From: Candidatus Bathyarchaeota archaeon
GTDB taxonomy: Archaea > Thermoproteota > Bathyarchaeia > Bathyarchaeales > Bathycorpusculaceae
Direction of reading: 5' to 3'
DNA: 64,000 bases
Assembly (NCBI GenBank): GCA_963828195.1
Contig: CAWHDT010000005.1
Location: 32,001 to 96,000, forward strand
The translations under genes were made by a program, and so were the position numbers. Shown piece by piece: positions 35,444 to 54,873 of the stretch (position 1 is the stretch's first letter; each line of letters begins with the position of its first letter). Under the pieces are notes generated by a model that was not told where the DNA came from, ran no database searches, and worked only from the letters and a program-made list of their open reading frames with translations.

Positions 35444-35517
35444 GGGCCGTTCGTCCAGCCTGGTAAGACGTCGCCCTCACGCGGCGAAGATCACCGGTTC
35501 AAATCCGGTACGGCCCA
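35444..35517 (+). tRNA. tRNA-Val(CAC)
   Basis: GGGCCGT/ACGGCCC acceptor stem; TCGCC-CTCACGC-GGCGA anticodon arm; GGTTCAAATCC. Confidence 0.95.
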
Positions 35518-36295
35518 TATTAGACTCAGCCCCTGCACGGTCTGAGCCCCAATTTGATACGCCCACAGAGTTATTCGCCCTTTGGTGTTCGACTCCCATA
35601 GAGACTCAAACTGTTGTAGGTACGAATCCTTTAACGACGCCACTTTCTGTTACATTAATCTGTTTTTTTCCACTCTCCATTTTTCTCCCGCTTAAATAGA
35701 GTCCTTTGATCAAGAAACAATAAAAAAAATAGGGAGCGTATGATTTGGCGGGTCAAAGCACGTTTTGGTCCAGACGCGCAAGGGTTTCAAGTTTGGGCTA
35801 AGAAGCCACCGTGTCCTGCCAATGTTGACTCAGCCAAACGTTTTTCCTTTTAAGGGAACATGCTTCCCGTTCAACTTGTAGCTTTATTTATCGATAAAGG
35901 GCTTTTTGATAGTTTTTTTGTACTTCGATGTTTAATAAAATTTAGCACACAAAAAAGCAAGCATAGTTTGAAGAGAGAGGGTAACGCGCTATTGCAATTT
36001 TACGTTTTTAGGGACTCGATGTTGCAGAAACAATGATGTAATGTTCATGCTTGCTGCCGTAAATGTCGGAGTATTATGCGTTTTTTTTATGCTTCTTTAT
36101 GTGTATTTTCGAATGTTAGTCGAATTGTTTAATCTTCTACTGGAACCGCCGCAACTGGCTTGGGTTATGGTCCACAATTTTCCGTCGTCGGTATAGGTGA
36201 ATACATATTAGTCCATTACCAGACCATAGTAGCGATAGTCTTTGCAATAGCCAGCGATGGACTAGCCTCCGTTCCCACCCTCCAGGAGTCCGAGG

Positions 36296-36913
36296 ATGAA
36301 AATTCACAAGAGAGTAACGCACATAGCAATTGAGCAGATGCAGGCGCCAGAAGTAATTGTGGAGGGCAAAAAAGTAAAAATCTGCTTAAATGGGTGCGGC
36401 ACACTTGTACCAGAGGGTAACAAAAAATACTGCAGTTTAAAATGCGCTAACGAATTCTACGCCAAACACAACCAAAAAGGATTACGAGAATACCTTCGCA
36501 AACGTGAACATGCCAAATGCCAAAGATGCGGCTGGAAAAACCCTAAAAAGCCACGACTACCGGCTTACCCCAAAAGACCGGGCTGGGTTGAAGGCGGCGT
36601 AAAAGCACACAGATTAGCAATGCAACAATACGAAAAAGATTATGAAGAAATTAGCAAAAAACGTAAAATGATAATGCGGGAATGGCATAAAACATCTCCA
36701 AAGCCCAGAACATTTGTAGCTGACCACATTATACCCATAGCAATAGGAGGGGACGAATTTGACCTCAAAAATGTTCAATGGCTATGCGCCCCCTGCAACA
36801 AAGAAAAAACAAAACACGACCAAGCTACAATAGCCCTCTACCGCAGACGAATCAAACTAATCGGAACCGGCGGGCAACCTTTAACACAATTCAATTCGAT
36901 TGATAAGAAATGA
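36296..36913 (+). CDS. HNH endonuclease with zinc-binding motifs
   Basis: CLNGC..YCS..C, CQRC, ADHIIPIAIGG....NVQWLCAPCNKEK. Confidence 0.88.
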   Translation: MKIHKRVTHIAIEQMQAPEVIVEGKKVKICLNGCGTLVPEGNKKYCSLKCANEFYAKHNQKGLREYLRKREHAKCQRCGWKNPKKPRLPAYPKRPGWVEGGVKAHRLAMQQYEKDYEEISKKRKMIMREWHKTSPKPRTFVADHIIPIAIGGDEFDLKNVQWLCAPCNKEKTKHDQATIALYRRRIKLIGTGGQPLTQFNSIDKK

Positions 36914-37326
36914 CTGATTACGAAATGGTTTATACTGAAGTAAAATAGAATCTATGATAGAAAGTATAGGCAGACCGGAACTGGCAAACATCACAGCAGC
37001 TTTCACGTACCAAACGCCTAAAAACAGCTCCATTCACGAAATTAAGCCAAAAAAGAATTAATGACCAGTTATGCGCGTACTCTTCCAGCGTCCACCGTTA
37101 GAGGTTTTAGTAGTTAATTGGTGAAATTAATGAGCCGCCTAAAAATGGAGCAGTATCTTAATGAGCGATTATGACCTTATTGAAACCGGATTAATTGATG
37201 ATTTGCCAGAACGATGGTTTAAATGTGGCATGTGCAACGCTAAAGTCGAAATATCTTATAGAGGTTGAATTCTTTTTGTCGAATGTTATAGTACTAGTTT
37301 GAGGTCGGAGTAAATTGAGTAACCAA

Positions 37327-37374
37327 AATGAAGAAAATAAAATTAAACCTAATGAAGAAAATAAACCTAAACCT
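37327..37374 (+). repeat. 24 bp tandem repeat, two copies
   Basis: aatgaagaaaataaaattaaacct / aatgaagaaaataaacctaaacct. Confidence 0.75.
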
Positions 37375-37533
37375 AAAAACGCCTATGTTAAAAGTAATCG
37401 TCATAATCGTAAATTTCATAGACGATAGAGAGAAGCGCGCTTATACGGTTTTATTTGGTCATGTTCACGAAATTATGGTTGAAGGTAGCAAAGTTGTCGT
37501 GGAAGACTGTAAAGCAAAAGTGGATAAACTGCC

Positions 37534-37737
37534 ATGTCAGTAACGGAAAAACGTAGCGGTGTTAATCAGGATGAACGGCGTGCTAAAAGTTTGGCTCTTA
37601 AGTTTTTAGCATCATTTCCTAATTACTCGGTTGCTCTGTTTGAATTAAGGTGGACTGAGTTTTTGAAAGAAAAAGCACGATATGGCAACCCAAAAGATAT
37701 AGCCAATGAATTCCTTAAAAAATATGGAGAACTTTAA
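37534..37737 (+). CDS. Small hypothetical protein
   Basis: 67 aa ORF in a run of micro-ORFs. Confidence 0.45.
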   Translation: MSVTEKRSGVNQDERRAKSLALKFLASFPNYSVALFELRWTEFLKEKARYGNPKDIANEFLKKYGEL

Positions 37738-37930
37738 AATGAGTAACCAAACAAGCCTAAAAAATAGCAAAATAAACATCGAAAGTAATAGGATAGCTTT
37801 TGATGCTAAACTGTCCTATTTCTACACTCATCATCAGAACATATAACATACAACAAATAAAATGCGGGTTGGATCATCCTATGCCGCCCAGTCCGTGGAA
37901 AGCCTTTAGGACAAAAAAGTTGGAGGTTGT

Positions 37931-38221
37931 TTAGGGTTTTGCGATAGTTATTTCCATCGTGGAAACCATTCGGGATCTGTTCTCGCCTTCTCGCGGCGGC
38001 ATCTCGACAGTGCCGATTGCAATGTTTGTCACTTTGAGGTCTTTTACGAAGCGGTTTCTTGTGATTTCTACGGAGTCTACTACAGTGGTTATTGCCTGGC
38101 CTCGAGCCTTTAGGGTGAGTTCTTTATTGGCGCCTGAGGAGAACGCGGTTATGATGGCGAGCACGTAGCTCATCGGCGGCTTGTTCCCGACAAATATTAC
38201 GTCATTAGGTTTTTCGGTCAT
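37931..38221 (-). CDS. albA: Alba chromatin protein (copy 1)
   Basis: IFVGNKPPMSYVLA, LKARGQAI, V.....RNRF, IGT, VSTMEI. Confidence 0.9.
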   Translation of the reverse strand: MTEKPNDVIFVGNKPPMSYVLAIITAFSSGANKELTLKARGQAITTVVDSVEITRNRFVKDLKVTNIAIGTVEMPPREGENRSRMVSTMEITIAKP

Positions 38222-38701
38222 GTTCTTTTCACTTCTGGATTCCAATGGTGCCATCAATTATATAGGTACCGATTCGGCAATGCCGTAAGGCTTTCCAAAA
38301 ATTTACCCCATAGAGGGAAGAAGGTCTTATGGGTTTTACCTTATCATCATAACATATAAAATGAATATAATTTATTTTGACTTGGCTTCTCCCATCCCAG
38401 CCGATTCGCGGAAGGGCTTTGAAGAATACTTACAAGAGATATTCCGAAGTCATTGATTGCTTTTTTTCGCAAAAACTAGCGATTGCTCTACTTACAACGT
38501 ACATTGATAGCGAAATGTCCCACATAAGAAATCTAAGGTTTCCGAAAATCGGAATCTTAATCCAGCGCGCGCTGTTGCCAAAAGCTTCAAGCAGTTGCCA
38601 AAGCCCTGAAATCAACCTTCAGTGAGCGTATCTTCCGCCAAACGCTATGTAGAAAACTGTGACTGCAGCATACAAAGCCAAACTGACGTAAACTGAAACA
38701 T

Positions 38702-39289
38702 ATGCAAAGCCGACAGCTAAAGAGTAGACAATGGGACCCACAAAGACTATTCTGTTTCGATAGGTCGTCACTTCAGGGCTCGGCTACCAAGTTTTGGAGG
38801 AGCGCTTTTCCCGGTCAGATTCCGGACAGGCTTGTGATGGCTGAAGAGCTTAAGGGGGACGTGATCTCTCTCGAAGGTGAAGAGTTGGTGGCCGTGGAGG
38901 TCGGGCATGGCGACTCAGACTACAGTACCTGTCTAAACATCCCCTCCATAGGCCTCGAAGTGGCTGGAGATGTAGCCTACAATGACGTGCACCTGTATTT
39001 TGTCGAGTCGAACCATCTAAAACGCGGCGAGTGGATCTCAGCGCTCGACAAGATCGAATCGCTCAATCCGAGAGCTGTGATCGCGGGACACAAGAGGCCT
39101 GGGAGGGAGGACAGCCCCAAGATCATCGAAGAAACCAGGCAGTACATCCGCGATTTCGACCGCTTGGACGGGGTAACGACGACTTCGACGGAACTCTACG
39201 ACCAGATGCTCAAGCTGTATCCCGATAGGTACAATCCTGGCATGCTGTGGACCTCCGCCCGCACGGCCAAAGGTGGGAGTTCCGTTTGA
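38702..39289 (+). pseudogene. N-terminally truncated metallo-beta-lactamase-fold hydrolase
   Basis: GH.DS, VAGDVAYN.VH, VIAGH present; HxHxDH missing; visibly GC-richer than its flanks. Confidence 0.7.
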
Positions 39290-39592
39290 GTGAACTCGTC
39301 AACCGTGCTGCGATGCTACTGGCGCGCGCCCACCCGGACTCGACTGCAGTTAGTTTTTAATGGTAAAAAGGTGCTGGGATCCCCCGTCCAACACCTTTGA
39401 ATATCTCCAATAATACGTATGAAAATGTTATCCGACCGTTTGAGAAGGATTAATTCCTTTGTTTTTAGTGAAGGTTTTGAACTTAAATGGGTTTAGGAAC
39501 GGGCAGCCCCCAGCATGTTCATTTGTTTAATCGCTTTATAGGGCAGTTGCGTAGTATAGGGCAGTAACGTTATGATTAAATGGTGATGGTAA

Positions 39593-39880
39593 ATGTCGGA
39601 AAAATCAAAAATTGTTTTCGTTGGAAAGAAAATGCCAATGGACTATGTTCTCGCTATTATTACAGGTCTGTCGGCGAGCGATGCTAAAGATATAACCTTG
39701 AAGGCGAGAGGACAAGCAATAACCACTGCTGTTGACGCGGCTGAAATAGCGAGAAATCGCTTCCTAAAAGACTTGAAAGTAAACAAAATCGTGATAGGAA
39801 CCGAGGAGATGCCGCCAAGAGAGGGCGAAACCAGAGCACGGATGGTTTCAACAATTGAAATAATGCTTACAAAAGAGTAG
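39593..39880 (+). CDS. albA: Alba chromatin protein (copy 2)
   Basis: VFVGKK.PMDYVLA, LKARGQAITTAVDAAEI.RNRF, VSTIEI; GGTGA SD. Confidence 0.92.
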   Translation: MSEKSKIVFVGKKMPMDYVLAIITGLSASDAKDITLKARGQAITTAVDAAEIARNRFLKDLKVNKIVIGTEEMPPREGETRARMVSTIEIMLTKE

Positions 39881-40132
39881 GAATACTTTGCGAAACACGC
39901 GCTAAGTAAACGTAAAGGCGCGGCACGTTTTGGTCTTCTACCGTTCGATTGAAAATCCCTTTGAAAAACTAAGACAACGTCGCTTTCTCTTATTAGACGC
40001 GCCACAGATTATGTGGCAGTAGTTAAAGATGGGAAAGTCCAATTTAAAGAGTACATTTATGAAAACGATGACTTTGGTGAATTGCTAGATAGGGACGTGG
40101 CAACATGACGTTGAATAGAAGTAAACCTTGGT

Positions 40133-40333
40133 GTGACTATGAAATGTCCCGCTTGCAATAAAATTCTTAAACGAATAGAGAGTGTATGCGGCGAGTACAT
40201 CTGTATTAATCCTGAATGCCTTGAAAACAAGAAAGCACATGTGCAGGGATGCGCGGAGTTTTACGGGCTTACCCAAGCAGACATAAACGCAAACTATCAC
40301 ATAGCACTTACCAAAAATAGGACGCAGAAATAG
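40133..40333 (+). CDS. Small Cys-rich zinc-finger protein
   Basis: CPAC ... CINPEC. Confidence 0.55.
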   Translation: MTMKCPACNKILKRIESVCGEYICINPECLENKKAHVQGCAEFYGLTQADINANYHIALTKNRTQK

Positions 40334-40385
40334 CCAAACACCAAAAGAAGGTAAATAAAATATAAATAAGGAGAATAAACAACCT

Positions 40386-40529
40386 GTGAAAAACTTGAAT
40401 AACGTTTTAGGTCCAAGGTGTTCTTATTGTGGTAGCACTCGCCTTGAAGAAGATGAAGATGTCGTTAAGTGTCTTGATTGCGGCATGGGGAATTATAAGA
40501 AAGGTAGGCATAAGAAGTATTGTAAATAA
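40386..40529 (+). CDS. 47 aa TFIIB-type zinc-ribbon micro-protein (not in the ORF track)
   Basis: AAGGAG SD; MKNLNNVLGPRCSYCGSTRLEEDEDVVKCLDCGMGNYKKGRHKKYCK. Confidence 0.6.
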   Translation: MKNLNNVLGPRCSYCGSTRLEEDEDVVKCLDCGMGNYKKGRHKKYCK

Positions 40530-40570
40530 TTGCTTAGGTAATGATATGGAAAAAAATGGAAAATTTTTAC

Positions 40571-40762
40571 ATGTTCGAATCTAATGGAAGACCACGTAGT
40601 AATTGGGGAAGCAATCAACCTTACGAGTGCCTTCGATGCGGATCAACCACGATGGGTGAAAACATAGAGGAGAGAAACGGCTTAATCAAATGTATCGTAT
40701 GCGGATACAGAGTTTTAAAGAAGACGAAACCGCCAGTAGTAAAGAGAGTTCTCGCAAGATGA
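40571..40762 (+). CDS. rpoP: DNA-directed RNA polymerase subunit P (Rpo12)-like protein
   Basis: YECLRCG...IKCIVCGYRVLKK.KPPVVKRVLAR. Confidence 0.85.
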   Translation: MFESNGRPRSNWGSNQPYECLRCGSTTMGENIEERNGLIKCIVCGYRVLKKTKPPVVKRVLAR

Positions 40763-41035
40763 TATAAGAGCTTTGCATCAAAAATGTTTCTTTTAAGCCA
40801 ATATAACTACTGTCTTTTGTACGTTTTTGGTTTTTTTGCCTAATTAAAAAGTCTTTAATCTGCACAGCATAGAAATAGCCAACAAACACTCAAATCCTTA
40901 GAAAGACGCATAAACACGTTGGAACAGGCGCTTTCTGGCTCAGAAACAAGAACCAAAACAAACGAAAATACATTCCTCCGAGAACATCAGGATTTATAAT
41001 AAAGTTCAGCGTATTAATATTACAGATGGTGCATT

Positions 41036-41242
41036 ATGGCTGTTCTTGAATGCCCATCCTGCAATGAAATCCTTGAAGTCGAAGCGCCTGATAAACTCCA
41101 CTCAGCATTCTCATCAGCAAAGCCAACACAAAAAAGTTCTCATGGCAAAATCATTCAAAAGAAAGTAAGGTGCAAAAACCAAGATTGCAAAAAAACATTC
41201 ACGGTCTACTGGTATGCTCCACTAGAATACTTCTGCAGATGA
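41036..41242 (+). CDS. Small zinc-ribbon protein
   Basis: CPSC ... CKNQDC..FTVYWY; TTTATAA TATA box and GGTG upstream. Confidence 0.65.
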   Translation: MAVLECPSCNEILEVEAPDKLHSAFSSAKPTQKSSHGKIIQKKVRCKNQDCKKTFTVYWYAPLEYFCR

Positions 41243-41475
41243 TGAGCTTCAAATCTGATACTATCGATTAAGTAGCGTTGGCTTTGAAAATTAAGAGAGC
41301 TTATTATTTCAGTTCTAAGTAAAACGTGAAGTTTTGTATTTATGCTAACCAGGAAGGCTCAGCGGGCTTCGCCCGTTTCGCACGAACGCCAACCTAATCA
41401 CTCTTTCTTGGTGAAGACCCTGATAAGGCTGAATCGCCGTCAGCATAAATTGACGTTTATCTGTCCCTTCCGAAA

Positions 41476-43644
41476 TTACACTACAAAAGGCGCGGGCTTC
41501 TGCGGCCTTCGAACCTGATTCATAAAGCTCCTATACCAATTCTCAATTTCTGGCGATATGCTCGGCGGAACCTCCTCCATAGCTTTCTCAAAATCGCTTA
41601 AGGTAACCTCTTTTGCGTTGCTGTCTCTTCTTAAAGCGTTCATGGCGGCCTCCCTGCATACGGATGATATATCGGCGCCGGAGTAACCTTTCGTCATGCG
41701 ATACTCCTTGATGTCCACATCATTTGATAGTGGCATGTTCATTGTATTAATCTTGAAGATTTCAAGTCTGGCCGCTTCGTCGGGTTCTGGAACATAAATT
41801 AGCCGATCGAACCTGCCTGGTCTTAATACGGCTGAGTCGACAATATCGGGCCTATTTGTCGCAGCTATAACTATAATGTTTTCTAAGGGCATTATTCCAT
41901 CCATTTCTGTTAAAAGCTGGCTGATGACGCGTTCAGTTACTCCGCTGTCGCCGTCACCCAGTCCCCTCCTTGGAACAAGAGAGTCAACTTCATCGAAGAA
42001 TATGACCGCTGGCGAAGCCATTCTAGCCTTCCTGAAGATCTCTCGAATAGCCTTTTCAGACTCGCCAACCCACCTAGAGAAAACCTCCGGGCTCTTAATC
42101 GAAATGAAGTTTGCCTCGCTCTCAGTTGCAACAGCCCTAGCCAGCATTGTCTTCCCACACCCAGGCGGGCCTATTAACATTATACCTTTAGGCGGCTGAA
42201 TCCCCATTCTCTTGAAGACTTCAGGATTTTTCAGTGGCCACTCAACAGCCTCCTTTAACTTTTCTTTAACCTCCGCCAAGCCGCCCACTTCATCCCAATG
42301 AACAACTGGAACTTCCACAGCAATCTCTCTCATAGCTGTAGGCGTAATTTCCTTGAATGCGTTCAAGAAATCATCTATCTGAACCTCCATCTTCTCCAGG
42401 ACGTAGGGCGGTATTTGCTCTTCCGTCAGATTTATCTCGGGAAGATACCTAAGTAGAGCTTTCATAGCTGCCTCTCTGCACAGGGCGGCCAAGTCAGCAC
42501 CCGTGTAACCGTGCGCTCGCTCAGCAAGCACCTTTAAGTCAACATCACGGCCTAAGGGCATACCTCTGCTATGAATCAACAATATTTCATGACGCCCCCG
42601 CTTGCCTGGGGTCCCTATCTCTATCTCGCGGTCAAACCTCCCAGGCCTCCTGAGAGCTGGATCCAAGGCATTCGGCCTGTTTGTTGCGCCTATTACTATG
42701 ACATTTCCTCTACCAGCCAATCCGTCCATGAGAGATAGAAGCTGAGCGACAACCCTTTTCTCCACTTCACCTGTAACCTCCTCACGTTTGGGCGCGATGG
42801 AGTCCAACTCGTCTATAAGTATGATGCTCGGGGCGGTTTTATGAGCCTGTTGAAATATTTCTCGAAGCTTCGCCTCCGACTCCCCATAGAACTTACTTAT
42901 TATCTCAGGCCCGTTTATTGAGGAGAAGTTTGCGTTCGACTCATTCGCTACTGCTTTAGCTAGGAGTGTCTTTCCGCAGCCGGGTGGGCCGAGCAGTAGA
43001 ACCCCTTTTGGAGGATCTATTCCAAGCGTCTGGAAAATCTCGGGATGCCGCATTGGAAGTTCAACCATCTCCCTTATGCGTTGAATCTCCTCTTCCAAAC
43101 CTCCTAAGTCCTCATAGGTGATGCGTGGTACACCTTTGGGTTCCGCCGCAGGTTCAGTCAATATCTGCAATGTAGTATCGTGGTTCATCTTTACTATTCC
43201 TTGGGGCTGCATCTTCGCTACAGTGAACTGGACAGAGTGACCAAGCATCATAACGGACGTCGTGTCTCCCTCAACAAATGTCCTATCGATAAGTCTGTTC
43301 TTCACAAAATTTGCAAAGTCTTCGTCAACGTTCAATCGCATTTCTACTGGAGCAAGCACTATGCTCATGGCATCTTTAACTTCAGCCTTGCGAACTACAA
43401 CGTACTCGTTTATTAATACGCCAGCATTTTTACGTAAGAACCCATCGATTCGCATAACGTTTGGATCCTGTTCTTCAGAGTCCGCTGGCCAAGCGATCGC
43501 CGACGTTTTTTTCTTCCCTGAGAACTCTATTACGTCTCCAGATGAAACCCCTAACTTTTGCATTGTACTCTGGTCTATTCTAGCGATTCCTCTAGCCACA
43601 TCTCTCTGTCTGGAATCCAGAACTTTCAGCTGAACTTCGCTCAA
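41476..43644 (-). CDS. cdc48: CDC48/VAT AAA+ ATPase
   Basis: N domain and two AAA modules: GPPGCGKT x2, IDELD/FDEVD, RPGRFDR x2. Confidence 0.95.
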
Positions 43645-44351
43645 TTTTCAACGCTCCATTAAACATATTTTTGATAAAAGCACTAAATCCGTTCTCTCAA
43701 CATCATTAGAACATATTGTGATTTGATAAGGGTGTCAGGACACTTTCTTAGACATAAACGTTGCATTTTTCTGAAAGTGAAGCTATTTTTCAGCGCACAC
43801 GCTGATTAGTTTAATTCAATTTTTCCCTGTTGTTATTTGGCTTCACTCTTCTTAGTGGGTTTTATTTTCGCCCCTCTTTAGGGTGTCCGTGTAGGTTTTC
43901 TTTTTCACGCTCTTTCTAATCGGGCAATTAAGCCGAATAGACGATTTACACCTGCGGCAGTTCTTAACTAAACCTACTCTTAATTGGCACATTTTCATTT
44001 ACCTCTTTTCCTCTGTTTATACTCATTGCTCGTATGTTTATACCCATTGCTTTTTTAGCTTAATTTGTTATTTTTGCAATAGTTAAGCAATTAATTAAAA
44101 TTAACTATTCACTATATTTGCCAAAATCAGATTATCATTTGCCTTGGTGACTTGGTTTAGGCTTTTCTGGTTGCTCTATCTCACTACCCTATGGGTTACA
44201 GCCATCACCTTTATCCTCGGTTTTCCGTATTGAGGTTTCAACTGTTCACTTTTGCCTTTGCTTATAAATTCATTTAAACATGTGTTATTGCGCAAACTAC
44301 TGTCTAAATTAACAGCTAAAACCTTGCCCATTACTTTCTCTTCTATTTCTT

Positions 44352-44522
44352 TTACTTTAGTTCCCTTCTTTGGACTATCATGGCTCCATTTCTTTTCCTA
44401 ACGTAACTTGCCCCACATTTGTTTGAATGGTCCACTTTTTTTGGATCATACGTTTCAAATACGATACCACAGGGGCAGGTTCTAATGAGAACTTCATTAC
44501 TTAATCTCTCAGAGTTTTCCAT
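44352..44522 (-). CDS. 56 aa putative zinc-binding micro-protein (not in the ORF track)
   Basis: MENSERLSNEVLIRTCPCGIVFETYDPKKVDHSNKCG... Confidence 0.45.
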   Translation of the reverse strand: MENSERLSNEVLIRTCPCGIVFETYDPKKVDHSNKCGASYVRKRNGAMIVQRRELK

Positions 44523-45663: not shown

Positions 45664-46061
45664 GCATTTTTCAACTCACTTTTTAAAAAAATCGTAATAG
45701 TTACTACACTTATAAAGTTCTCTTGAAAAAATTTAAGAGATCTTCACTCTAATCCCCAATTATTGCGAATCCACCTGCCCAGAGTATGATGGCATCTGAC
45801 TACTTCATTTTCTTTCAAGCTCTTGAAGTACATGATTCCTTTCTTACTCAACTTTTTTCCAGTTCCGCAAACAACTCTTCAAGAACAGTTGAAGGAATCG
45901 TTGGAAGACTTAGAAAAACAAGGCAAAAAACCTTAACTCATTTTCTTTGGTAGGAAGACTTAAAGAACCAGTCAACATAACGCTAAAGGAGAGAAAAAAA
46001 TTGGAAAAATACAGTTACGACTTATGCACTCTTGACTTTTTCTTGTTTTAGGTGAAAATAT

Positions 46062-46238
46062 ATGAAAGATTTTAAATGCCCAATATGTGGTGCACCAACG
46101 GAAAAGGTTTGGGAAAATGCAATCAAAACAAGATACGGAATGAGATGCACGAAAGGCCACAAAAAAACAGGTGGCAAATCAGGTGATTCAATAGAGTACC
46201 CTACATTTCTTGTTCCAAGAGAAGAACTTGTCAAGTAA
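46062..46238 (+). CDS. 58 aa zinc-finger micro-protein (not in the ORF track)
   Basis: AGGTGA SD; MKDFKCPICG...RCTKGH... Confidence 0.6.
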   Translation: MKDFKCPICGAPTEKVWENAIKTRYGMRCTKGHKKTGGKSGDSIEYPTFLVPREELVK

Positions 46239-46662
46239 AGAATAGACGCTTTTTTAAGTGAAAAACATGTTACGTTCAGTTTCCTATCCAAAGTTGAAGA
46301 ACAGATGCCTTAACTATATCGAGAAGAATAAGAACTTTAAGAAGGTTAGAACATGACGGACAGCTATAAAAAAGAATTGATGAATTAATAGCAAAATAAA
46401 AAGTTCAGCGTGAAGTAATCAGTGAAACCCCCGAGTGCAAAACCGTCAAAATACATAGTAGCATAGATGGTAAAAGATGCCAAGTTTGCGATAAAAAACT
46501 TAACCCCAATAAAATATTTTGGTACAAACATGACAGAGGAATTACATCAACAAATCCACGCAAAATGGCTATATATACCCGTTTCAGGCGCTAATTTTGA
46601 AGCGGATTTTGTATCTTCAACGAGACGGCAACTAAAGATAATCCCTTTTACATTGGACCTCG

Positions 46663-46971
46663 TTAAGGCTTTAATTCTCTGTCTTCACTGTAGTCTCTGT
46701 CCTCGTGGACTTCCTCTTCAGCTTCGTCTTCGCTTTCTTCTTCAGCCTCACTTGCTTCTTCGCCTTCAGCACTTGCTTTATCTTCAGCTTCACCCTTTGG
46801 TGGATAAGCCTTATCCAACCAAATTTCAAACTGTGCTTTATATTCGGAGTTAGAAAAAGCCCAATCACACAATCCACCAATAACCTTGCCCACGTCAATT
46901 TCATGTTCTTCAGCTAAACGTTTCAAGAACTCTTCCCAATTTGCAGGTAAAGACACTGGAAAACTACTCAT
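46663..46971 (-). CDS. Hypothetical protein with RHH-like N-terminus and long acidic tail
   Basis: FPVSLP..WEEFLKRLAE; EEASEAEEESEDEAEEE; GGAG SD. Confidence 0.6.
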   Translation of the reverse strand: MSSFPVSLPANWEEFLKRLAEEHEIDVGKVIGGLCDWAFSNSEYKAQFEIWLDKAYPPKGEAEDKASAEGEEASEAEEESEDEAEEEVHEDRDYSEDRELKP

Positions 46972-47056
46972 AAAACAATCTCCGCTATCTTGTTAGTGGC
47001 AAGTTATATTTAAGTTTCAAAGGCACTTGAAAAATTGTTTTTTGGAATGGATGTTT

Positions 47057-47245
47057 CTACCTTTGCTCTTTTAACAGTTGCAGTCGTTTGGCGACTTCTT
47101 TGGAGATCTTTTCTAAACCTTGCGCTAATTCTTCGCGATCGACTTCGTCTAAAGGGTACCATTTCCCTTCCTTGTCGATGAAGACAAGTTCCACTTTTCT
47201 TTTTATCATTAATTTCACCTTATTAATCAAATGCTTATTGTTCAC
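47057..47245 (-). CDS. Small hypothetical protein
   Basis: AAGGTGA before the internal ATG (MIKRK). Confidence 0.45.
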   Translation of the reverse strand: MNNKHLINKVKLMIKRKVELVFIDKEGKWYPLDEVDREELAQGLEKISKEVAKRLQLLKEQR

Positions 47246-47401
47246 GAATCGCTTAAACTTTTCTTGCCCAATGGCTTCAATCAGATAATGTACACGAGTT
47301 AACAGAGAATTACCCTCAAAGCCAAATCCCGAGAAGAGTTAACAGAACCAAACAAAGCAATATTCTCAAGTGTAATCTTGAGAAACGCTTATCGATATTA
47401 A

Positions 47402-47990
47402 ATGGCAACTTCGAATAAATGGTGTGTAGCCGTTTTCAAATACAATCCTGACTCGGTAAAAAATGTGCTTGTTGAATTCTACAGGTTTGCTGATGACCTA
47501 AAAGGAGTGCGAAGTCTACATTTCTTGATCAGAGATAGAATTGACGATGAGTTTTTTTTTAGCTTCAGAGTAATGGTTGAACCTAAATTCAAAGAAATAG
47601 TCAAAACCAAATTAGCAAACAAACTGGGTATATTACTATCCGAAGATAAGTATGCCGTTGATCCAGCTGCGAAAAACAGTCTTGAGCAGTATGTTGCTTG
47701 GCTACCTGAAAAGAGAATTGCGAATTTTGGACAAAACAAGTTTGACCAATTCATTGATCTTCTCAAAAACCTGAGCACACTTGTTGTTCAGCTAATTGAG
47801 AATAACTACTTTGCCTCAAATGAGAAGAGTTGAACTAGCACACGTCACATCTTGGATGCCTGGATGAACCGAATATGGTCTGCTTAGTTCCTCAGGAATG
47901 GAAATAGGGTACTGCGACCGCTTGGACGACAAGTATTGTTCATATTTGAGACAGGACTTCCCAAAATCAAGTGACCAAAAGAAACCACAA
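47402..47990 (+). pseudogene. Hypothetical protein disrupted near 47825-47870
   Basis: 143 aa ORF; the shifted frame continues RVELAHVTSWMPG*TEYGLL...YCDRLDDKYCSYLRQDF. Confidence 0.45.
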
Positions 47991-48049
47991 ATCATACCTA
48001 AAGACAAGTTTGCTATTATTATGCGCCAAAACTGTGCAACGCAGATGGC

Positions 48050-48262
48050 TTATTTTAGCAGTTTTATGCTTTCTTCTAGACTCATGGCTAGCTTGATTTC
48101 GCTGGTGTTCCAAGCCATCCATTTTATCATGTCGGGCTCCATGGAGAATTTCTGGAGGCTTTCTGAACTTGGGGCTTTATACACCCAAACAGTCAAATGT
48201 TCAGGAATTACAGTCCAGACTCCGATTCTTTTGATGCCATGTTTCTTTTCCAAGTCACCCAA
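48050..48262 (-). CDS. Small alpha/beta (GYD/DUF3303-like) protein, possibly 5'-truncated
   Basis: KKHGIK.IG.W....EH....VY.APS.E. Confidence 0.5.
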   Translation of the reverse strand: MGDLEKKHGIKRIGVWTVIPEHLTVWVYKAPSSESLQKFSMEPDMIKWMAWNTSEIKLAMSLEESIKLLK

Positions 48263-48543
48263 TTTTTCAGGTAATCCAATGTTATTTTTTTCATTTTCTC
48301 ATTATTTATTGGACAGTTCTCAGGAGAATGCTTAGAAACTATCAAAAAAATAGCCTTAAAACAACGCTCTCAAAAGAGAGAAGACTCAAAACTAAGATAT
48401 AAACCATAAGCAGACTTGACATTCTATTTAAAAATAGTTTTGTTTAGTAGAAATAGACTCAGAATAGTGCGAAATTAGGCTCGGAGCAAAACTAGGAAAG
48501 CCTTAACTGAATCATACCTGTATTGATATATGAGGAATAGTTT

Positions 48544-50193
48544 TTGTCTTCGCAAGCAGGTGGCGTGCCTGTTCTAATTATGAGAGAAGGATCTGGATCC
48601 AGAGGAAAGGATGTCCAGCGTAACAATATTATTGCGGCCAAAACAATAGCGGAAGCCGTAAAAAGTTCGTTAGGCCCCAAAGGAATGGATAAAATGTTGG
48701 TGGATAGTTCTGGCGATGTAATCATTACCAGTGATGGAAGAACTATCCTAGACAAGATGGATATTGACCATCCAGCTGCTAAGATGATGGTTGAAGTAGC
48801 TAAGACCCAAGACGCGGAAGTAGGAGACGGAACCACCACGTCGGTCATAGTTGCCGGCGAACTCTTAGGAAAAGCTGAAGACTTGGTAAACAAGGGCATA
48901 CACCCCATCCTAATTGTCGAAGGATACAGCAAAGCAGCTGATAAAGCTCTTGAAACACTTGAAAAAATTGCGTTTTCCGTTAATCCTACGGAAAAAGAGT
49001 TTTTGATGAAGGTCGCGGCAACCTCTATGGCCAGTAAGCTGGTAGCTACGAACAAAGAACAGCTTGCAGACATAGTCGTCAAAGCTGTTTTGCATGTCGC
49101 CCAAAAAGTAGGAGACGACTACACAGTAGACTTAGACGATATCATGGTGGAGAAAAAGCCAGGCGAATCCGTTGCAGAAACCACACTTATCGAAGGGTTA
49201 GTTCTTGACAGAGAAGTTGTTCACTCAGACATGCCTAAACGGGTGGAAAAAGCAAACATAGCATTATTAGAAAGCGCGCTTGAAATTGAAAAAACCGAGT
49301 TTGACGCTAAAATCAACATTGAACGCCCAGAACAGATCCAATCTTTCCTACAAGAAGAAGAAAATATGCTCAAAGCAATGGTTGAAAAGATAGTTGCCTC
49401 AGGCGCCAACGTTGTTTTGTGCCAGAAAGGCATAGACGACATTGTCAAGCACTTCTTAACTAGGAAAGGAGTCTTAGCCGTACATCGAGTCAAAGAGTCG
49501 GATATGAAGAAACTATCAAAAGCCACCAGCGGAAAAATTGTCAATAACGTAGACAGCCTCTTAACAAGCGACTTAGGCTTTGCAGAAATCGTTGAGGAAA
49601 GGAAGATCGGCAACGACAAGATGACCTTCATCGAAGGATGCAAGAACCCGCACGCAGTAGCTATCCTCATACGAGGTGCAGATAAACGCTTTATTGATGA
49701 AGCTGAACGATCACTTCACGATGCACTATGCGTAGTCCAAGACGTAGTTCAGGAGCCCAAAATCGTTGCGGGAGGGGGTGCCCCAGAAATGGAAATCGCT
49801 AGAGCACTAAGAAGCTATGCTGAAACCCTGCCAGGCAGAGAACAGCTTGCCGTCCGAAGCTTCGGCGAGGCCATGGAAATTGTGCCACTGACGTTGGGTG
49901 AAAATGCCGGTCTCGATCCCATAGATCTGCTATTAGAGCTCAGAACCCGCCATGAGAAAGGCGAAAAATGGGCAGGCGTAGACGTTTTGGAAGGAAAAAT
50001 CAAAGACATGAAAGACCTAGAAGTCTACGAGCCTTTAGCTGTTAAGAAACAGATCATCAAGTCTGCCACCGAAGCTGCCACAATGATACTGAGGATTGAT
50101 GACGTCATCGCCTCTGGAAAGATGAAAGCTCCACGTATGCCTCCTGGCGGAAGGCCAGGCGGCGGCTACGGCGGCATGCCCCCACAATATTAA
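48544..50193 (+). CDS. ths: Thermosome (group II chaperonin) subunit
   Basis: [30 protein letters not shown] tail. Confidence 0.95.
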   Translation: MSSQAGGVPVLIMREGSGSRGKDVQRNNIIAAKTIAEAVKSSLGPKGMDKMLVDSSGDVIITSDGRTILDKMDIDHPAAKMMVEVAKTQDAEVGDGTTTSVIVAGELLGKAEDLVNKGIHPILIVEGYSKAADKALETLEKIAFSVNPTEKEFLMKVAATSMASKLVATNKEQLADIVVKAVLHVAQKVGDDYTVDLDDIMVEKKPGESVAETTLIEGLVLDREVVHSDMPKRVEKANIALLESALEIEKTEFDAKINIERPEQIQSFLQEEENMLKAMVEKIVASGANVVLCQKGIDDIVKHFLTRKGVLAVHRVKESDMKKLSKATSGKIVNNVDSLLTSDLGFAEIVEERKIGNDKMTFIEGCKNPHAVAILIRGADKRFIDEAERSLHDALCVVQDVVQEPKIVAGGGAPEMEIARALRSYAETLPGREQLAVRSFGEAMEIVPLTLGENAGLDPIDLLLELRTRHEKGEKWAGVDVLEGKIKDMKDLEVYEPLAVKKQIIKSATEAATMILRIDDVIASGKMKAPRMPPGGRPGGGYGGMPPQY

Positions 50194-50346
50194 CACCCCT
50201 TAACAACAATTACAAAGATCCTATTTTCAAAAAAACCCTATTAACTGGGTTAATATTCGAGGTAACTTTTTCATCCATAGTCCTTAACAGGGCAGATCTT
50301 TTCAAAAACGTACAACAGTTAATTTTTTAAAAGAAAATGGGGGTGT

Positions 50347-51993
50347 TTATTCTTCACCTTCGGAGCCGCCGGGCATTCCACCGGCTGGTCCGCCTTTTGG
50401 CGCTTTGGATGTTATGACATCGTCAATGCGTAGTATCATGGCTGCTGATTCTGCTGCGGATTTGATTGCTTGTTCTTTAACGGCGATCGGTTCGATTACG
50501 CCGTTGTCGAGGCTGTTCTGCACTTTGCCCGTGAAAACGTTTATGCCCATGTATTTGCCGGTTTCTTTGTCGTGTGCTGATCTCAGCTCCACAAGTAAAT
50601 CTATTGGATCTAGCCCAGCGTTTTCTGCGAGTGTGCGAGGGATTACTTCCATTGCATCTGCGAATGCTTCAACAGCTAATTGTTCTCTTCCACCGACTTT
50701 TGTTGCGTACTTCCGTAGCTCTTTGGCTACTTCGATTTCTACTGCTCCTCCGCCGGCAACGATTTTGCTGTTTTCAAAAACGTCTGAAACAACTGAAAGC
50801 GCGTCGATAAGTGCTCTTTCAGCTTCATCCACCATTCGTTCAAGCCCTGCTCGTATCAATATAGCTACTGAATGAGGATCTTTGCATTTCTCAACGAAGA
50901 TCATTTTGTCGTCGCCGATTTTGCGCTCTTCAACCAAGCCGGCAAAACCCAAGTCTGTCGTCTTCAAATCGTTCAAATTGGAGGTAACTCTTCCGCCTGT
51001 TGCTCTTGCGAGTTTCTCCATGTCTGACTCCTTGACTCGTCTAGCAGCCATTATTCCTTCTTTAGATAGGTAGTGTTGAACCATATCGTCTAATCCTTTC
51101 TGGCAGAACACAACATCTGCGCCTGAAGCTTTGATCTTGGTTACCATGTCTTTGAGCATGCTGTCCTCTTGGTCTAGGAAAGCTTTCATTTGGTTCGGAT
51201 CGCGTATGCGTATTTCGGCGCTCATTTCGGTTTTCTCAATTTCCAATGCAGAATCCAAGAGTGCGATTTTCGCGTTTTCTTTCTTTTTGGGCATCGTCGG
51301 ATGGACGATTTCTTTGTCAATGATTATGCCTCTGACGAGTTGCGTCTCGATGAGGCTTTTTCCCGTCTTCTTTACCAGCTGTATGTTATCTATGTCTGCT
51401 ATCATCTTGTCTCCACGTTTCTCGGCTATCTGCTTTACAGCTTCTATGGCGATTTCCGCAAAGTGTTCTTTAGCACCGCCCACCGCTTTGCTGCCCATGG
51501 ACGTCAAGGCGACTTTCATCATTGTTTTTTGATCTTCTACGTCGATGGGCACAGCGTTTTTCTCTATGATTTCGATTGCTTTTTGAGTTGCCTTGCGGTA
51601 TCCGCTGACAAGTATTATTGGGTGAATATTTTGGTCCAACAGTTCTTCAGCTTTTTTGAGAAGTTCACTGGCCAACACCACGGCGGTTGTGGTTCCGTCG
51701 CCTACCATGTCGTCTTGTGTTTTAGCGATTTCAACCATCATTTTTGCTGCTGGGTGTTCAACGTCTATTTCTTTTAGGATTGCTGCGCCGTCGTTTGTTA
51801 TTGTTATGTCGCCTAGGCTGTCGATGAGCATTTTATCCATGCCCTTTGGGCCTAAGGTGGTTTTGAGTACTTCGCCGATTACTCGTGCAGCCATGATGTT
51901 GTTTCTCTGGGCTTCTTTACCCCTGCTTCGAGAGGTCCCCTCCTTCAAAATGAGTACTGGTTGACCACTTTGGGTTTGAGTTAAATATGCCAA
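50347..51993 (-). CDS. ths: Thermosome (group II chaperonin) subunit
   Basis: [33 protein letters not shown]; AAGGAG SD. Confidence 0.95.
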
Positions 51994-52326
51994 GTTATTC
52001 TCTCCTTAATTTTATTCATTAATAGTCTTTTTTTAGCATAGTAAGCGTTTTTGTGATTCGCAGGAAACGCCCAAATCTCAGGCGCGCTGAATAAGATGGA
52101 TTTGACCAGTAAGAGACTGGAGACTAAACATTTTCCACTGTTCCAAAACCGCTCACTCTGTAATGTAGATATCGTCAAACAGGGATTTAAACCCGTTTAG
52201 CAATTACAGCGCGATTTCTAACTAACTATTTAGTTTTAAACTGTACACGTTGATTTTTCAAAAATGCGCGTCCATATTGAAGTGCATAGGTTATCTTATT
52301 CAGCAGAAGTTTTCTAAAGTAACCAT

Positions 52327-52515
52327 TTAACTATCGTCGTGCATAAGAAAAAGTGGTTTAAGGGCTTCTTCTTTCATAATTTTTTTGATTGCAGCATCAT
52401 CATCAAAGTTCTCGCCATTTGTGGCACTCACGTGGATCTCTAATTCTTTCAGAATAAGATGAATTTCATTATTAGTACAATCGACGCAAAGCACTTGTGC
52501 CTGTTTCAAGATCAT
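52327..52515 (-). CDS. Small hypothetical protein
   Basis: 62 aa ORF with CVDC. Confidence 0.35.
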   Translation of the reverse strand: MILKQAQVLCVDCTNNEIHLILKELEIHVSATNGENFDDDAAIKKIMKEEALKPLFLMHDDS

Positions 52516-52545
52516 TTACTTCCATAATTACAATAGACACACCGA

Positions 52546-52915
52546 GATGCCGAACGACTAATATTGGGAGCTGAAAAATACATTTGGCTTATCGGACAAA
52601 GACCGTTAAGCAACCTGGACGCAAAAACACTCGATATGGTCCAAAAAGGTGTTACGGTTAGACTGTTATTTGATGAAAGCAACCGCAAATTCTACGAAAT
52701 ATTCCAGAGATAAAAGATCATTTTGAAAAGAGAGTAATTCAAGTTGTTCCAGCAATTGTTAATCAGTGAAAAAATTGCGGGTATTAACATGCTTTCATTC
52801 GACGGCAGAGCAGACAGCGCAGTATTTTATGGAAAAGACCCAAAGTTACTAAAGATGGGCAAACGATTTATTTCTCTATTATTGGGAACTGGGAAAGAGA
52901 TGCTATTCAACATAA
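52546..52915 (+). pseudogene. C-terminal remnant of a FilR1/DUF1724-like archaeal regulator (3 frameshifts)
   Basis: AEKYIW...KGVTVRLLF / ISEKIAG...DGRAD / GKDP / WANDLFLYYWE across shifting frames. Confidence 0.6.
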
Positions 52916-53026
52916 TGTAGTTCTCTATTGTTTGCGGATCGAGCCGGACTAATCCTCGCGGCACAACCGTAAACTTAAAAACAGGTCTTATGAGAGCCCT
53001 CAAAGAGACAGGTTTTGAACCCGTTC

Positions 53027-54667
53027 GAGAGTGTGTGAAAAGTCTCTTTTTTGCGTCTATTTACCGTTAACCTTAAATCTAGACTGGCTTTAGAGCAACA
53101 GAAAGAGCTGAAGAGCCATGAGCGAACACGTAACAGGCCATTACAGAAATCAATCAGTTCTCTTCCCAAACATACTCGACGATTACGTTGACAAAGAGAA
53201 CCCGGTTCGGTTCATTGACGCCTTTATCGATAGCCTCAACTTAGAGAAGCTCGGATTCAAGCACTCAGTACTGGCAGACACAGGAAGACCATCTTATGAT
53301 CCTTCAGACCTGCTAAAACTCTATCTTTATGGTTACCTCAACCAAGTGAGATCAAGCAGAAAACTCGAGAAAGAGTGCCACCGCAATGTCGAGGCCATGT
53401 GGCTCATGAAAAAGTTGGCTCCAGACTTCAAAACCATTGCTGACTTCCGAAAGAATAACGTAGAATGCATCAAGGGAGTGTTCAAGGAATTCGTTTATCT
53501 TTGCAAAAGCCTGGACCTTTACGGTGCTCAGTTAATAGCTATTGATGGAACCAAATTCAAAGCGGTAAACTCAAAAAGCAACAATCTCAACGAGAAAACA
53601 GTCGCTTTGAGGCTCAAACAAACAGAAGAAAAGATAGCAGAGTACCTCAAAGAAATGGACCATAACGACACGGCTGACTCAGATGAAGATGAAAGCATCA
53701 ATGTAGATGATCTCAAGGAAAAAATATGCAAGCTTGAAGAGGAAAAGCAGCGATATGAGCAGATTCAAGGCCAAATGAAGGCAACTGGCCAGAGGGAGGT
53801 TTCACTTGTTGATCCTGATAGCCGTTTGATGCGGGTAGACAGTCAAAGGCTTGAGGTCTGCTACAACATTCAGACGTCTGTGGATGCGAAGCAGCATTTA
53901 ATTGTGGATTATGATGTTATCAATAATTCGACTGATCACCATCAGCTAGCGACTGATGCTAAGGCTGCAAAACAGATGCTTGGTGTTGATCGGTTGGAAG
54001 TGTTGAGTGACAAAGGATTCTACGTTGCGAATGATCTCGTTAAATGTGAGGAAGCTGGGATAACGGTGTTCATGCCGATTCCAGCTTTCAATCCTACTAA
54101 GAGTGCGGGTGTACCGGAGCCTGAGTTTGGTTCTGAAAGGTTTATTTTCGATGGGGTCAAGGACGTTTATGTTTGTCCTGGTGGGAAGGAACTGGGGTTT
54201 TGGAAGGGAAGTTTCAAGGGTAAGCCTGAATGTGGTAGGCGTTATAGAACGGTTTCCTGTTCTCGTTGTGATTCTAGAAGCAGGTGTACTCGAAATAGGC
54301 GGGGCAGGATAATGGTGAGGTGGGAATATCAGGATGCGGTTGACAGGCTTAGAGCAAGGCTTGTGAGTTCTGAGGGAAAAGAGAAGTTGCGTTTGCGTCG
54401 GATGTTGGCGGAGCATCCGTTTGGAACAATGAAGCGGGCATTCAATCAGGGTTATTTGCTTTTGAAAGGTTTGCGGAAGGTCAAAGGAGAAGTAGGATTT
54501 ACTATGCTTGCGTACAACATAAGGCGGGTCTTCAACATTCTTGGAGTTAGAGCGCTAATGGGTTTGATGAAGACGTAAAAAAGAGAAAACAAGTGAATAA
54601 TGATCCATGACAATAGCTTGAGCGCCAGGTATTCTTAGACTTTAGCTCTGAGTTTTGACACAGTCTG
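53027..54667 (+). mobile_element. IS1182-family insertion sequence
   Basis: Imperfect 18 bp terminal inverted repeats (GAGAGTGTGTGAAAAGTC / rc CAGACTGTGTCAAAACTC, 14/18); 4 bp target duplication GTTC at 53023-53026 and 54668-54671. Confidence 0.88.
53118..54578 (+). CDS. IS1182-family transposase
   Basis: GRPSYDP, SSRKLE, PDFKTIADFR, IDGTK, DPDSR, SDKGF, EHPFG.MK. Confidence 0.93.
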   Translation: MSEHVTGHYRNQSVLFPNILDDYVDKENPVRFIDAFIDSLNLEKLGFKHSVLADTGRPSYDPSDLLKLYLYGYLNQVRSSRKLEKECHRNVEAMWLMKKLAPDFKTIADFRKNNVECIKGVFKEFVYLCKSLDLYGAQLIAIDGTKFKAVNSKSNNLNEKTVALRLKQTEEKIAEYLKEMDHNDTADSDEDESINVDDLKEKICKLEEEKQRYEQIQGQMKATGQREVSLVDPDSRLMRVDSQRLEVCYNIQTSVDAKQHLIVDYDVINNSTDHHQLATDAKAAKQMLGVDRLEVLSDKGFYVANDLVKCEEAGITVFMPIPAFNPTKSAGVPEPEFGSERFIFDGVKDVYVCPGGKELGFWKGSFKGKPECGRRYRTVSCSRCDSRSRCTRNRRGRIMVRWEYQDAVDRLRARLVSSEGKEKLRLRRMLAEHPFGTMKRAFNQGYLLLKGLRKVKGEVGFTMLAYNIRRVFNILGVRALMGLMKT

Positions 54668-54769
54668 GTTCGGGTATGGGGATGGGCAGCTTCAAACCAT
54701 GGTCAAAATTCGCAAAATATCCTTATTCAGTAAGTTTGAGATAGGGACTCATACCGTGTACGGGGTAAG

Positions 54770-54783
54770 TCCGGTACGGCCCA
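54770..54783 (+). repeat. attR-like copy of the tRNA-Val(CAC) 3' end
   Basis: TCCGGTACGGCCCA followed by CCA. Confidence 0.75.
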
Positions 54784-54873
54784 CCATAATCTCCAATGTT
54801 TGACTTGGTTTCCTCGTTTTTGGTAGCTTTGCTTGAATTAATGCTTATTAACTTGAAAAAGAATATTATTTAA

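Follow-up and report, generated by a model that had tools for sequence, protein, structure and literature searches.

An island inserted at tRNA-Val(CAC) in a peat or soil Bathyarchaeia genome carries additional copies of transcription, chromatin and proteostasis genes

It is common to regard the genes for RNA polymerase subunits, TBP and TFB, chromatin proteins, CDC48 and the thermosome as the part of an archaeal genome least prone to transfer. Extra TBP and TFB genes do occur on haloarchaeal megaplasmids, that is, in accessory and potentially mobile DNA, where they are thought to allow alternative promoter usage, and jumbo phages and giant viruses encode chaperonins or RNA polymerase subunits of their own. 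For integrated elements, the main text of a thaumarchaeal mobile-element catalogue reports TFIIB on all integrative-conjugative elements, together with cryptic integrated elements that are defined by their integrase (PMC6563490). Here we describe a stretch of 64,000 nucleotides (nt), positions 32001-96000 of contig CAWHDT010000005.1 (C5), from a Bathyarchaeia metagenome-assembled genome (MAG) of peat or soil (G000; 2.83 Mb in nine contigs), whose close relatives among public Bathyarchaeota/Bathyarchaeia MAGs come from bog, palsa, fen and soil. This stretch is called the window, and plain coordinates refer to it; G-numbers label genomes, L-numbers loci and C-numbers contigs. In our estimate there is a probability of roughly 85% that positions 35518-54769 are an integrated island, one of a family of mosaic elements that enter tRNA 3' ends in a genus of soil and peat Bathyarchaeia. 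A first-pass annotation of the same letters had proposed an island of this structure, and the second gene copies, the empty sites in relatives and the CDC48 tree reported below all agree with it.

As far as the main text of PMC6563490 describes them, the thaumarchaeal cryptic integrated elements and tRNA islands resemble this locus in their insertion at a tRNA 3' end with a direct repeat, in size (~17-20 kb), in a mosaic content without virus or conjugation hallmarks, and in being linked to one another by shared genes; a basal transcription factor (TFIIB) is also already known there as cargo. They differ in that their one conserved gene, the integrase, is missing from the G000 island, and in that the cargo here consists of syntenic paralogues of essential machinery (TBP, CDC48, Alba and thermosome, with RpoB added in sister islands), and that main text contains neither 'TATA' nor 'chaperon' nor 'Cdc48'. 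Thermosome, TATA and Alba go unmentioned in the available text of a survey of Bathyarchaeia viruses, as do these together with Cdc48 and chaperonin in that of a 2026 survey of archaeal proviruses, and the available text of the Stordalen mobile-element paper does not mention Bathyarchaeia. That of the Bathy-6 genome paper (PMC11697101) describes large genomic regions and one provirus, further regions being covered in its Supplementary Text S6, which may be relevant here. In this literature, with supplements such as Text S6 outside the search, no such cargo beyond TFIIB was found on an archaeal integrated element. The novelty lies in the cargo and its behaviour, with partly syntenic paralogues of essential machinery moving between species on tRNA-targeting islands. 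The haloarchaeal TBP and TFB genes, in contrast, lie on replicons rather than being integrated at tRNA genes, and, to our knowledge, show no linkage to genes for chaperonin, CDC48, Alba or RpoB and include no case in which one module was recently transferred between species. Jumbo phages and giant viruses are likewise mobile genomes with homologues of host folding and transcription genes, whereas the island ORFs (open reading frames) scanned here include no virion or replication gene and the copies appear to be close xenologues from the same archaeal order.

The tRNA-Val(CAC) gene at 35444-35517 is the only one that ARAGORN finds in the whole genome. Its last 14 nt, TCCGGTACGGCCCA, which run from the final base of the T loop through the 3' strands of the T and acceptor stems to the discriminator, occur exactly at 35504-35517 and again, on the same strand, at 54770-54783 (19,266 nt from start to start); the 3' end of tRNA-Val(GAC) gives a third match, with one mismatch. 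The chance expectation for such matches is 0.00, with zero found in 100 dinucleotide-preserving shuffles. The copy at 54770 is followed by CCA, as the first-pass annotation had noticed together with the repeat, and the copy in the tRNA gene by TAT. We queried the two flanks separately in 30 relatives, 18 of which belong to the same genus. Nine of these 18 congeners (G003, G004, G005, G009, G010, G012, G013, G014 and G015) have no more than ~700 nt between the tRNA and the right flank; G016 is occupied, G002 has a gap of ~7.5 kb, and in the remaining seven the parts lie on different contigs or the tRNA is unassembled. In G004, G009 and G013 an alignment (A1) shows the native tRNA as ...TTCAAATCCGGTACGGCCCACCA, with a gene end of ...GGTTCAAATCCGGTACGGCCCACCA, directly followed by sequence that matches the one after 54786; G003 has an empty site likewise by blastn, and the remaining empty sites were identified by coordinates. 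The empty site joined to the eL38-side flank that had been suggested as a check thus exists in congeners, with the eL38 gene itself at 55805-56005 and not at 54874. Had the genes been sole copies, syntenic in relatives lacking an empty site, the proposal would have failed, and we found instead both paralogues and empty sites.

Since the native tRNA genes of congeners encode CCA, the CCA that follows the 54770 copy belongs to the tRNA end that the genome originally encoded at this site, and the tRNA body now carries an end supplied by the island. Displacement of the CCA in this way is what attP x attB recombination within the 3' portion of a tRNA gene classically produces. Recombination would have occurred within the 14-nt core common to the element and tRNA-Val(CAC), presumably catalysed by a tyrosine recombinase, so that the tRNA would have been rebuilt with an element-derived end without CCA while the original end and its CCA moved 19.3 kb downstream. 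We regard the insertion itself as demonstrated. A contig of X2, a soil sequencing run, that joins 53022 to 54668 and continues to 54844 with zero mismatches shows that the island is not an assembly artefact. A joint from 35517 to 54838 in an X2 contig, one side of which is just 24 letters long, was not counted as an excision; its probable source is a relative whose site is empty.

Two further species have related islands at tRNA-Val(CAC), visible at both junctions in G096 and at the right end in G016. The G096 island (34.6 kb) has an attL junction, GGCCCA followed by TATTAGACTCAG, that is identical to the one in G000, and the same right-end motif with a core that has one mismatch; it is 88-95% identical to the G000 island where the two share sequence, and its flanks 76-82%. 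In G016, whose contig ends inside the island, identity is 99% over 54668-54786 and 97% over 52181-53027, the intervening 53028-54667 being skipped, and it steps sharply from 99% to ~75% exactly at the core, with an adjoining right flank of 72-78%. Within the genus, G000 and G096 are the only genomes with the attL junction, and G031 has a tRNA-Val(TAC) variant of it. The right-end motif, searched as 20 nt with at most two mismatches in 120 genus genomes, has 20 sites in 16 of them, against two matches for the reversed-pattern control, and ~70 nt upstream of it are conserved as well; at three more of the 20 sites, in G057, G058 and G078, a tRNA-Val(CAC)-like end comes after the motif. Near the left end, 35596-37429 is 90% identical to a fragment of G121 that is situated between insertion sequence (IS) copies. 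A second integration hot spot is tRNA-Val(TAC), of which partial 3'-half copies (43-49 nt) lie 1.2-6.4 kb from the full gene in G004, G010, G011 and G014. In G000 (C7:200002-206300) and G031 (L135, C2:64529-67554) this tRNA has a trailer homologous to the left arm of the island, and such a trailer was not conserved in the relatives searched.

The cargo would amount to a foreign-derived second core set, comprising two Alba proteins, CDC48, TBP, an RpoP-like zinc ribbon and two thermosome subunits. We scanned 10 + 10 island ORFs against Pfam, nine against NCBIfam and 10 against PHROGs, and every large island ORF was assigned to a cellular family by Pfam and NCBIfam. CDC48 has PF02359, PF02933 and two PF00004 domains and scores 1030 bits against TIGR01243 (cut-off 803), the thermosome subunits 745.7 and 767.3 bits against TIGR02339 (cut-off 671), and the two Alba proteins 99.8 and 92.6 bits against NF003088 (cut-off 90); for TBP, the NCBIfam models all fall slightly under their cut-offs (best 242.5 against 270, and 178.5 against 181). 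Most of the gene calls of the first-pass annotation therefore stand (HNH endonuclease, two Alba, CDC48, TBP, two thermosome subunits and IS1182), the exception being its RpoP. There are four or five small zinc-ribbon ORFs in all, at 40133-41242 and 46062-46238, and the one at 40541-40762 (73 amino acids, aa) reaches only 27 bits against NF001608 (cut-off 84; E 2.5e-6; profile positions 4-46 of 46) and 17 bits against PF03604 (cut-off 24), for which the best match elsewhere in the genome, at 18.8 bits, is also below the cut-off. On these scores it is best called RpoP-like only.

All four of the gene types for which second copies had been predicted, alba, tbp, cdc48 and ths, do have them elsewhere in the genome: by tblastn, and counting the island, it contains five Alba, two CDC48, three TBP and five thermosome genes plus a distant sixth. 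Nearly all of the 120 genus genomes have one core CDC48, which shares 68-77% identity with the island copy, as well as two core TBPs, which share 67-78% and 62-64% with the island TBP. The island cargo is accessory, with an island-type CDC48 (at least 89% identical) in 18 and an island-type TBP (83-94%) in 12 of the 119 genomes besides G000. Within a 201-genome sample of the class the island type is confined to the genus, of which one of the 11 other members sampled is positive. Thermosome matches at 82% DNA identity in G010, G035 and G050 may be of island or core type.

These copies have spread between species recently. In the 11 genomes with both CDC48 paralogues (55 pairs), identity at four-fold sites averages 0.905 (0.864-0.977) among island copies and 0.448 (0.336-0.654) among core copies; the former exceeds the latter in every one of the 55 pairs, and the two divergences are not correlated (Spearman -0.09). 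Equal synonymous divergence of island and core genes is thus contradicted for CDC48. By the Nei-Gojobori method the synonymous divergence (dS) is 0.12 for the island and 1.5 for the core copy, the latter being saturated in two of the 55 pairs. Amino-acid identity, in contrast, is the same for both (0.927 and 0.928), and the ratio of nonsynonymous to synonymous divergence (dN/dS) is ~7-fold higher in the island copy (0.28 against 0.037). The frames are intact and under purifying but relaxed selection. Within the island CDC48 dN/dS is 0.46 in the N domain and 0.21-0.23 in the ATPase domains; the N domain is the best-conserved part of the core CDC48, yet it shows the greatest excess change in the island copy. 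Island TBP, Alba2 and Ths1 (the first thermosome subunit) have four-fold identities of 0.68-0.97 to other species, and Ths2 of 0.82 to G041, 0.58 to G090 and 0.40 to L045; such unequal values suggest modules of different age.

In a maximum-likelihood tree of 46 CDC48 sequences, the 14 island copies form one clade (SH-aLRT 100). The core copies of the genus group elsewhere (99), within the clade of their own family (100). The gene tree proposed as a check thus places the island CDC48 outside the core of its genus. The nearest neighbour of the island clade is a different family from the same order, f11, as its sister group (SH-aLRT 96), and an origin of the gene in that family is favoured by the tree. 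Duplication within the genus was considered and dismissed: a single clade of island and genus core copies is rejected by the approximately unbiased (AU) test (p-AU 2.9e-6). We also looked at whether the island copy has replaced the core copy in G096, where the core CDC48 (L089, C3:110000-113000) reads in two frames with a shift near residue 170 and the island copy is intact; the shift may reflect either an error in the long reads or a decaying core gene, and replacement is indistinguishable from the former.

TBP, CDC48 and Alba are adjacent in the order TBP -> CDC48 -> <- Alba in eight of 18 loci of named Bathyarchaeota MAGs, several of the others being cut by contig ends, and thermosome genes lie nearby in four of the loci. 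The DNA around these loci maps to unrelated regions of G000, so the genomic context is not conserved. The tRNA sites of the module vary as well: they are tRNA-Val in G000 and G096 and tRNA-Ser-like in G041 and G099, and in G109 the module lies beside tRNA-Phe. In G041 the adjoining tRNA-Ser-like locus contains 3' fragments in repeated copies as well as a degraded integrase. The set passes from one species to another as a module with partial synteny. In G096, G041, G101 and G100 the islands additionally carry a second full-length rpoB (1123 aa, seven Rpb2 domains), intact in the first two and in two pieces in the others; all four genomes also have a core rpoB, which is the only one in G000, and the island RpoB is 94-96% identical in amino acids to core RpoB proteins. 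The island rpoB lies between CDC48 and Alba in G096 (L048:12378-15749; G096:C3:937558-940926) and at the equivalent loci of G041, G101 and G100. The G096 island also encodes a TFB (NF001658, 429 bits), an ATPase of MIT-AAA-Vps4_C architecture, an SSB-like OB-fold protein, a Band-7 protein and ribosomal protein L18Ae/LX.

A six-frame search of the G000 genome with PF00589 (E at most 1), serine recombinases not being searched for, gave six matches, none of them within C5:67518-86769, in line with the first-pass statement that no integrase is visible. A split integrase of SSV type was sought by listing ORFs at both ends and in G016, whose island lacks the IS, and was discarded, as only small ORFs and one weak FilR1-like fragment appeared. 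Beside the island-type CDC48 of 10 other genomes, integrases are absent, distant or degraded. An intact tyrosine integrase of 437 aa (PF00589, E 1e-20) does follow tRNA-Leu(CAG) in G123, at the start of an island of ~37 kb; at the far end of this island stands the right-end motif, and another ~70 nt on, the 3' end of tRNA-Leu is repeated. This island shares with ours the ~90-nt right-end motif and the succession of tRNA, island and tRNA 3'-end repeat, and its integrase belongs to the family found degraded in G041 (47-55% identical to the G123 enzyme). It differs in its target tRNA, in an att repeat that lies ~70 nt past the motif, and in a non-housekeeping cargo of sensor kinases, glycosyltransferases and oxidoreductases. 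We infer that the G000 island was inserted by a G123-type enzyme that has since been lost. In G000 itself, contig C3 carries one intact homologue of the G123 integrase (31% identity) and C9 a fragment of one: there the stretch C9:63371-65060 resembles what is left of another related island, with a homologue (77%) of the acidic island ORF and a piece of G123-type integrase.

Assembled metatranscriptome contigs from two studies are 95-99% identical to the island CDC48, TBP, thermosome genes and Alba2. Since the core paralogues have a DNA identity of only ~68-78%, these RNA contigs are of the island type, which suggests that island-type genes are expressed somewhere in these communities; stretches that no RNA contig covers do not indicate silence.

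Several observations weigh against an integrase-borne, recently mobile island as the explanation. No integrase is found in the islands of G000, G096 or, as far as assembled, G016, and insertion by such an enzyme is therefore inferred. In G123 the right-end motif lies ~70 nt inside the tRNA-Leu repeat, which makes it a feature of the arm and not the crossover site, and tblastn found none of the queried housekeeping cargo there. A 26-nt pattern for the circular attP junction had no match in metagenome contigs and no circle joint turned up in the sequencing runs, none of which contains more than 35% of the sampled words, i.e. the source strain is poorly represented in them; a 23-nt attL pattern had no match in metagenome contigs either. 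GC content does not mark the island (0.37-0.50, with a genome mean of ~0.44). The RNA evidence consists of assembled contigs and is no proof that this copy is transcribed, and the paired comparison with a core paralogue covers CDC48 alone. As for the tree, the groups compared by the AU test were named after it had been seen, and a clade of the island copies with the genus's own family is not rejected (p 0.10), leaving the donor ambiguous. Taken together, the rejection of the clade with the genus core and the non-rejection of that with the family indicate that the island copies, as judged from CDC48, are xenologues or old paralogues that now circulate horizontally, rather than recent duplicates.

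One may also consider that the cargo was spread by homologous recombination or gene conversion at conserved flanks, the repeat being left from one old integration that was inherited and exchanged. The missing or degraded integrases beside most of the islands inspected would fit this, as would the strong mosaicism, the unequal age of the module (four-fold identity ~0.9 for CDC48 and TBP, 0.7-0.8 for Alba2 and Ths1) and the resemblance of the left arm to tRNA-Val(TAC) trailers. However, it does not lead one to expect an attL junction and a right-end motif that are identical in species whose flanks are only 72-82% identical, a change of identity in G016 that falls exactly at the core, a module at different tRNAs across species (Val, Ser-like, beside Phe), or a relative, G123, with an integrase, and we consider it distinctly unlikely.

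The locus might, alternatively, be the remnant of a provirus or plasmid whose housekeeping paralogues served to take over the host for the element's own cycle, a suggestion that the tRNA site and the HNH endonuclease near one end make natural and to which raised dN/dS of the cargo, common for genes of mobile elements, would correspond; TFIIB homologues are moreover conserved on the integrative-conjugative elements described in the main text of PMC6563490. Against this, none of the island ORFs scanned matched a capsid, terminase, portal, replication or conjugation family, nor did any of 13 ORFs of the G096 island, taken from a longer ORF list, that were scanned with Pfam or NCBIfam. The PHROGs scan of 10 ORFs, in agreement with the first-pass view that no capsid gene is visible, gave HNH families only, save a weak small-terminase match that coincides with the HNH motif. 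Nor do the ORFs scanned include pilus genes or ATPases of VirB4/VirD4 type, their only ATPases being CDC48 and the thermosome subunits, and IMG/VR contains no relative of the island CDC48 or TBP. As the module, furthermore, lies in different islands at different tRNAs with no shared backbone beyond the arms, we hold such a remnant to be very unlikely. That the repeat is coincidental or ancient and the genes ordinary vertical paralogues in a variable region, as its short length of 14 nt, the unremarkable GC content and the rearrangement of the region by inversion might suggest, is so improbable as to be negligible, being refuted by the empty sites with retained CCA, by an island CDC48 synonymous divergence ~10x below that of the core in the same pairs, and by the patchy distribution (18 of 119 genomes), besides the zero matches in shuffled sequences.

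The coordinates of the features are collected in Table 1. The island IS1182 is missing from G016 and from the zero-mismatch X2 contig, where 53022 and 54668 are joined with a 5-letter overlap; it is a later, secondary insertion that is polymorphic in the population. It has only 64% aa identity to the three other copies in the genome, and its terminal inverted repeats were not resolved. The two short repeats at 36963-37077 (~115 nt) and 37277-37430 (~154 nt) may be miniature mobile elements. Relative to G096, G004, G013 and others, G000 has an inversion of ~46 kb that includes the island (C5:67444 to ~113400); its left break lies between 35218 and 35224 and its other end at ~81400. The order in G096, G004 and others is tRNA-Phe, tRNA-Val(CAC), right flank and, further on, inverted tRNA-Ser and left flank, and both breakpoints directly adjoin tRNA genes, one of them tRNA-Ser(TGA)/tRNA-Val(CAC) and the second tRNA-Phe(GAA). 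The integrated island in G000 would thus be a copy that lost its integrase, later gained IS1182 and now lies within the inversion, and that could move further only by help in trans or by recombination. The decayed state described at first pass fits the lack of an integrase, the gene fragments and the one polymorphic IS copy, and the pseudogenes named there are borne out in part, by a truncated metallo-beta-lactamase-fold ORF and the weak FilR1-like fragments of the right arm. Just outside the island, the flanking gene at 56887-57594 encodes a NERD/Mrr-type nuclease domain with a weak N-terminal TrmB-like helix-turn-helix, and may be defence-related.

Table 1. Features of the tRNA-Val(CAC) island and its ends (window coordinates)
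Feature	Position	Strand	Evidence and remarks
tRNA-Val(CAC), integration target	35444-35517	+	ARAGORN, Rfam 58.5 bits; intact, without the encoded CCA of empty-site relatives
attL core, 14-nt direct repeat	35504-35517	+	exact TCCGGTACGGCCCA
Left arm	35518-35629	+	90% to G096 island; resembles tRNA-Val(TAC) trailers in G031 and on G000 contig C7
HNH endonuclease, N-terminal Cys-rich region	36296-36913	+	PF01844/PF14279
Two short multi-copy repeats	36963-37077, 37277-37430		many genus genomes, 84-97% identity
Alba copy 1	37931-38257	-	86% aa identity to copy at C5:624448
Truncated metallo-beta-lactamase-fold ORF, probably a gene fragment	38702-39289	+	PF00753 E 0.006, C-terminal part of profile only
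Alba copy 2 (Alba2), in recurrent TBP, CDC48, Alba module	39593-39880	+	NF003088
Run of small zinc-ribbon ORFs (40133-40333, 40386-40529, 40541-40762, 41036-41242)	40133-41242	+	all matches below cut-off
Island-type CDC48/p97 AAA+ ATPase, 722 aa	41476-43644	-	N domain, D1, D2; both Walker A GPPGCGKT
Island-type TATA-binding protein, third TBP of the genome	44676-45236	-	PF00352 205 bits, two repeats
Acidic 102-aa ORF, no family match	46663-46971	-	77% homologue at C9:63670
143-aa ORF, no family match	47402-47833	+	family scans
Thermosome subunit, island copy 1 (Ths1)	48544-50193	+	closest genome paralogue 65% identical
Thermosome subunit, island copy 2 (Ths2)	50347-51993	-	84% aa identity to C5:863473
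Right arm, inner	52181-53022		97% to G016; small ORFs, weak FilR1-like regulator fragments only
IS1182-family insertion sequence	53023-54667	+	transposase 53118-54578; NF033551 387 bits (cut-off 270)
Right arm, terminal	54668-54769	+	conserved end motif ...GGGACTCATACCGTGTACGGGGTAAG
attR, 14-nt core + CCA	54770-54786	+	displaced original 3' tRNA end

As to function, the extra copies may serve as alternative isoforms for transcription, chromatin and proteostasis; a possible switch of the cell to another state of transcription, chromatin and folding had been put forward by the first-pass annotation. It has also to be considered whether they belong to a circulating spare set (TBP, TFB, RpoB, RpoP-like, Alba, SSB, CDC48, Vps4, thermosome and LX) that provides a target-replacement defence or a programme imposed by the island, which we regard as unlikely. 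In the target-replacement variant of this proposal, the copies would swap out the targets of viral or toxin inhibitors of transcription and proteostasis. The raised dN/dS of the island CDC48 and its excess in the N domain, which binds substrates and adaptors, would fit diversification at partner-binding surfaces.

The module moved between species far later than the species split and was kept intact under selection. Its islands offer defined att sequences and an integrase family that can be tested in a lineage without genetic tools. If the copies work, this would have a bearing on the complexity hypothesis for gene transfer, would call for caution over the use of such genes as single-copy phylogenetic markers in MAGs, and would change how the presence of multiple TBPs and thermosome subunits in archaeal genomes is read. 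Uncultured archaea that are globally abundant in soil and sediment could then gain alternative isoforms for initiation and proteostasis by transfer.

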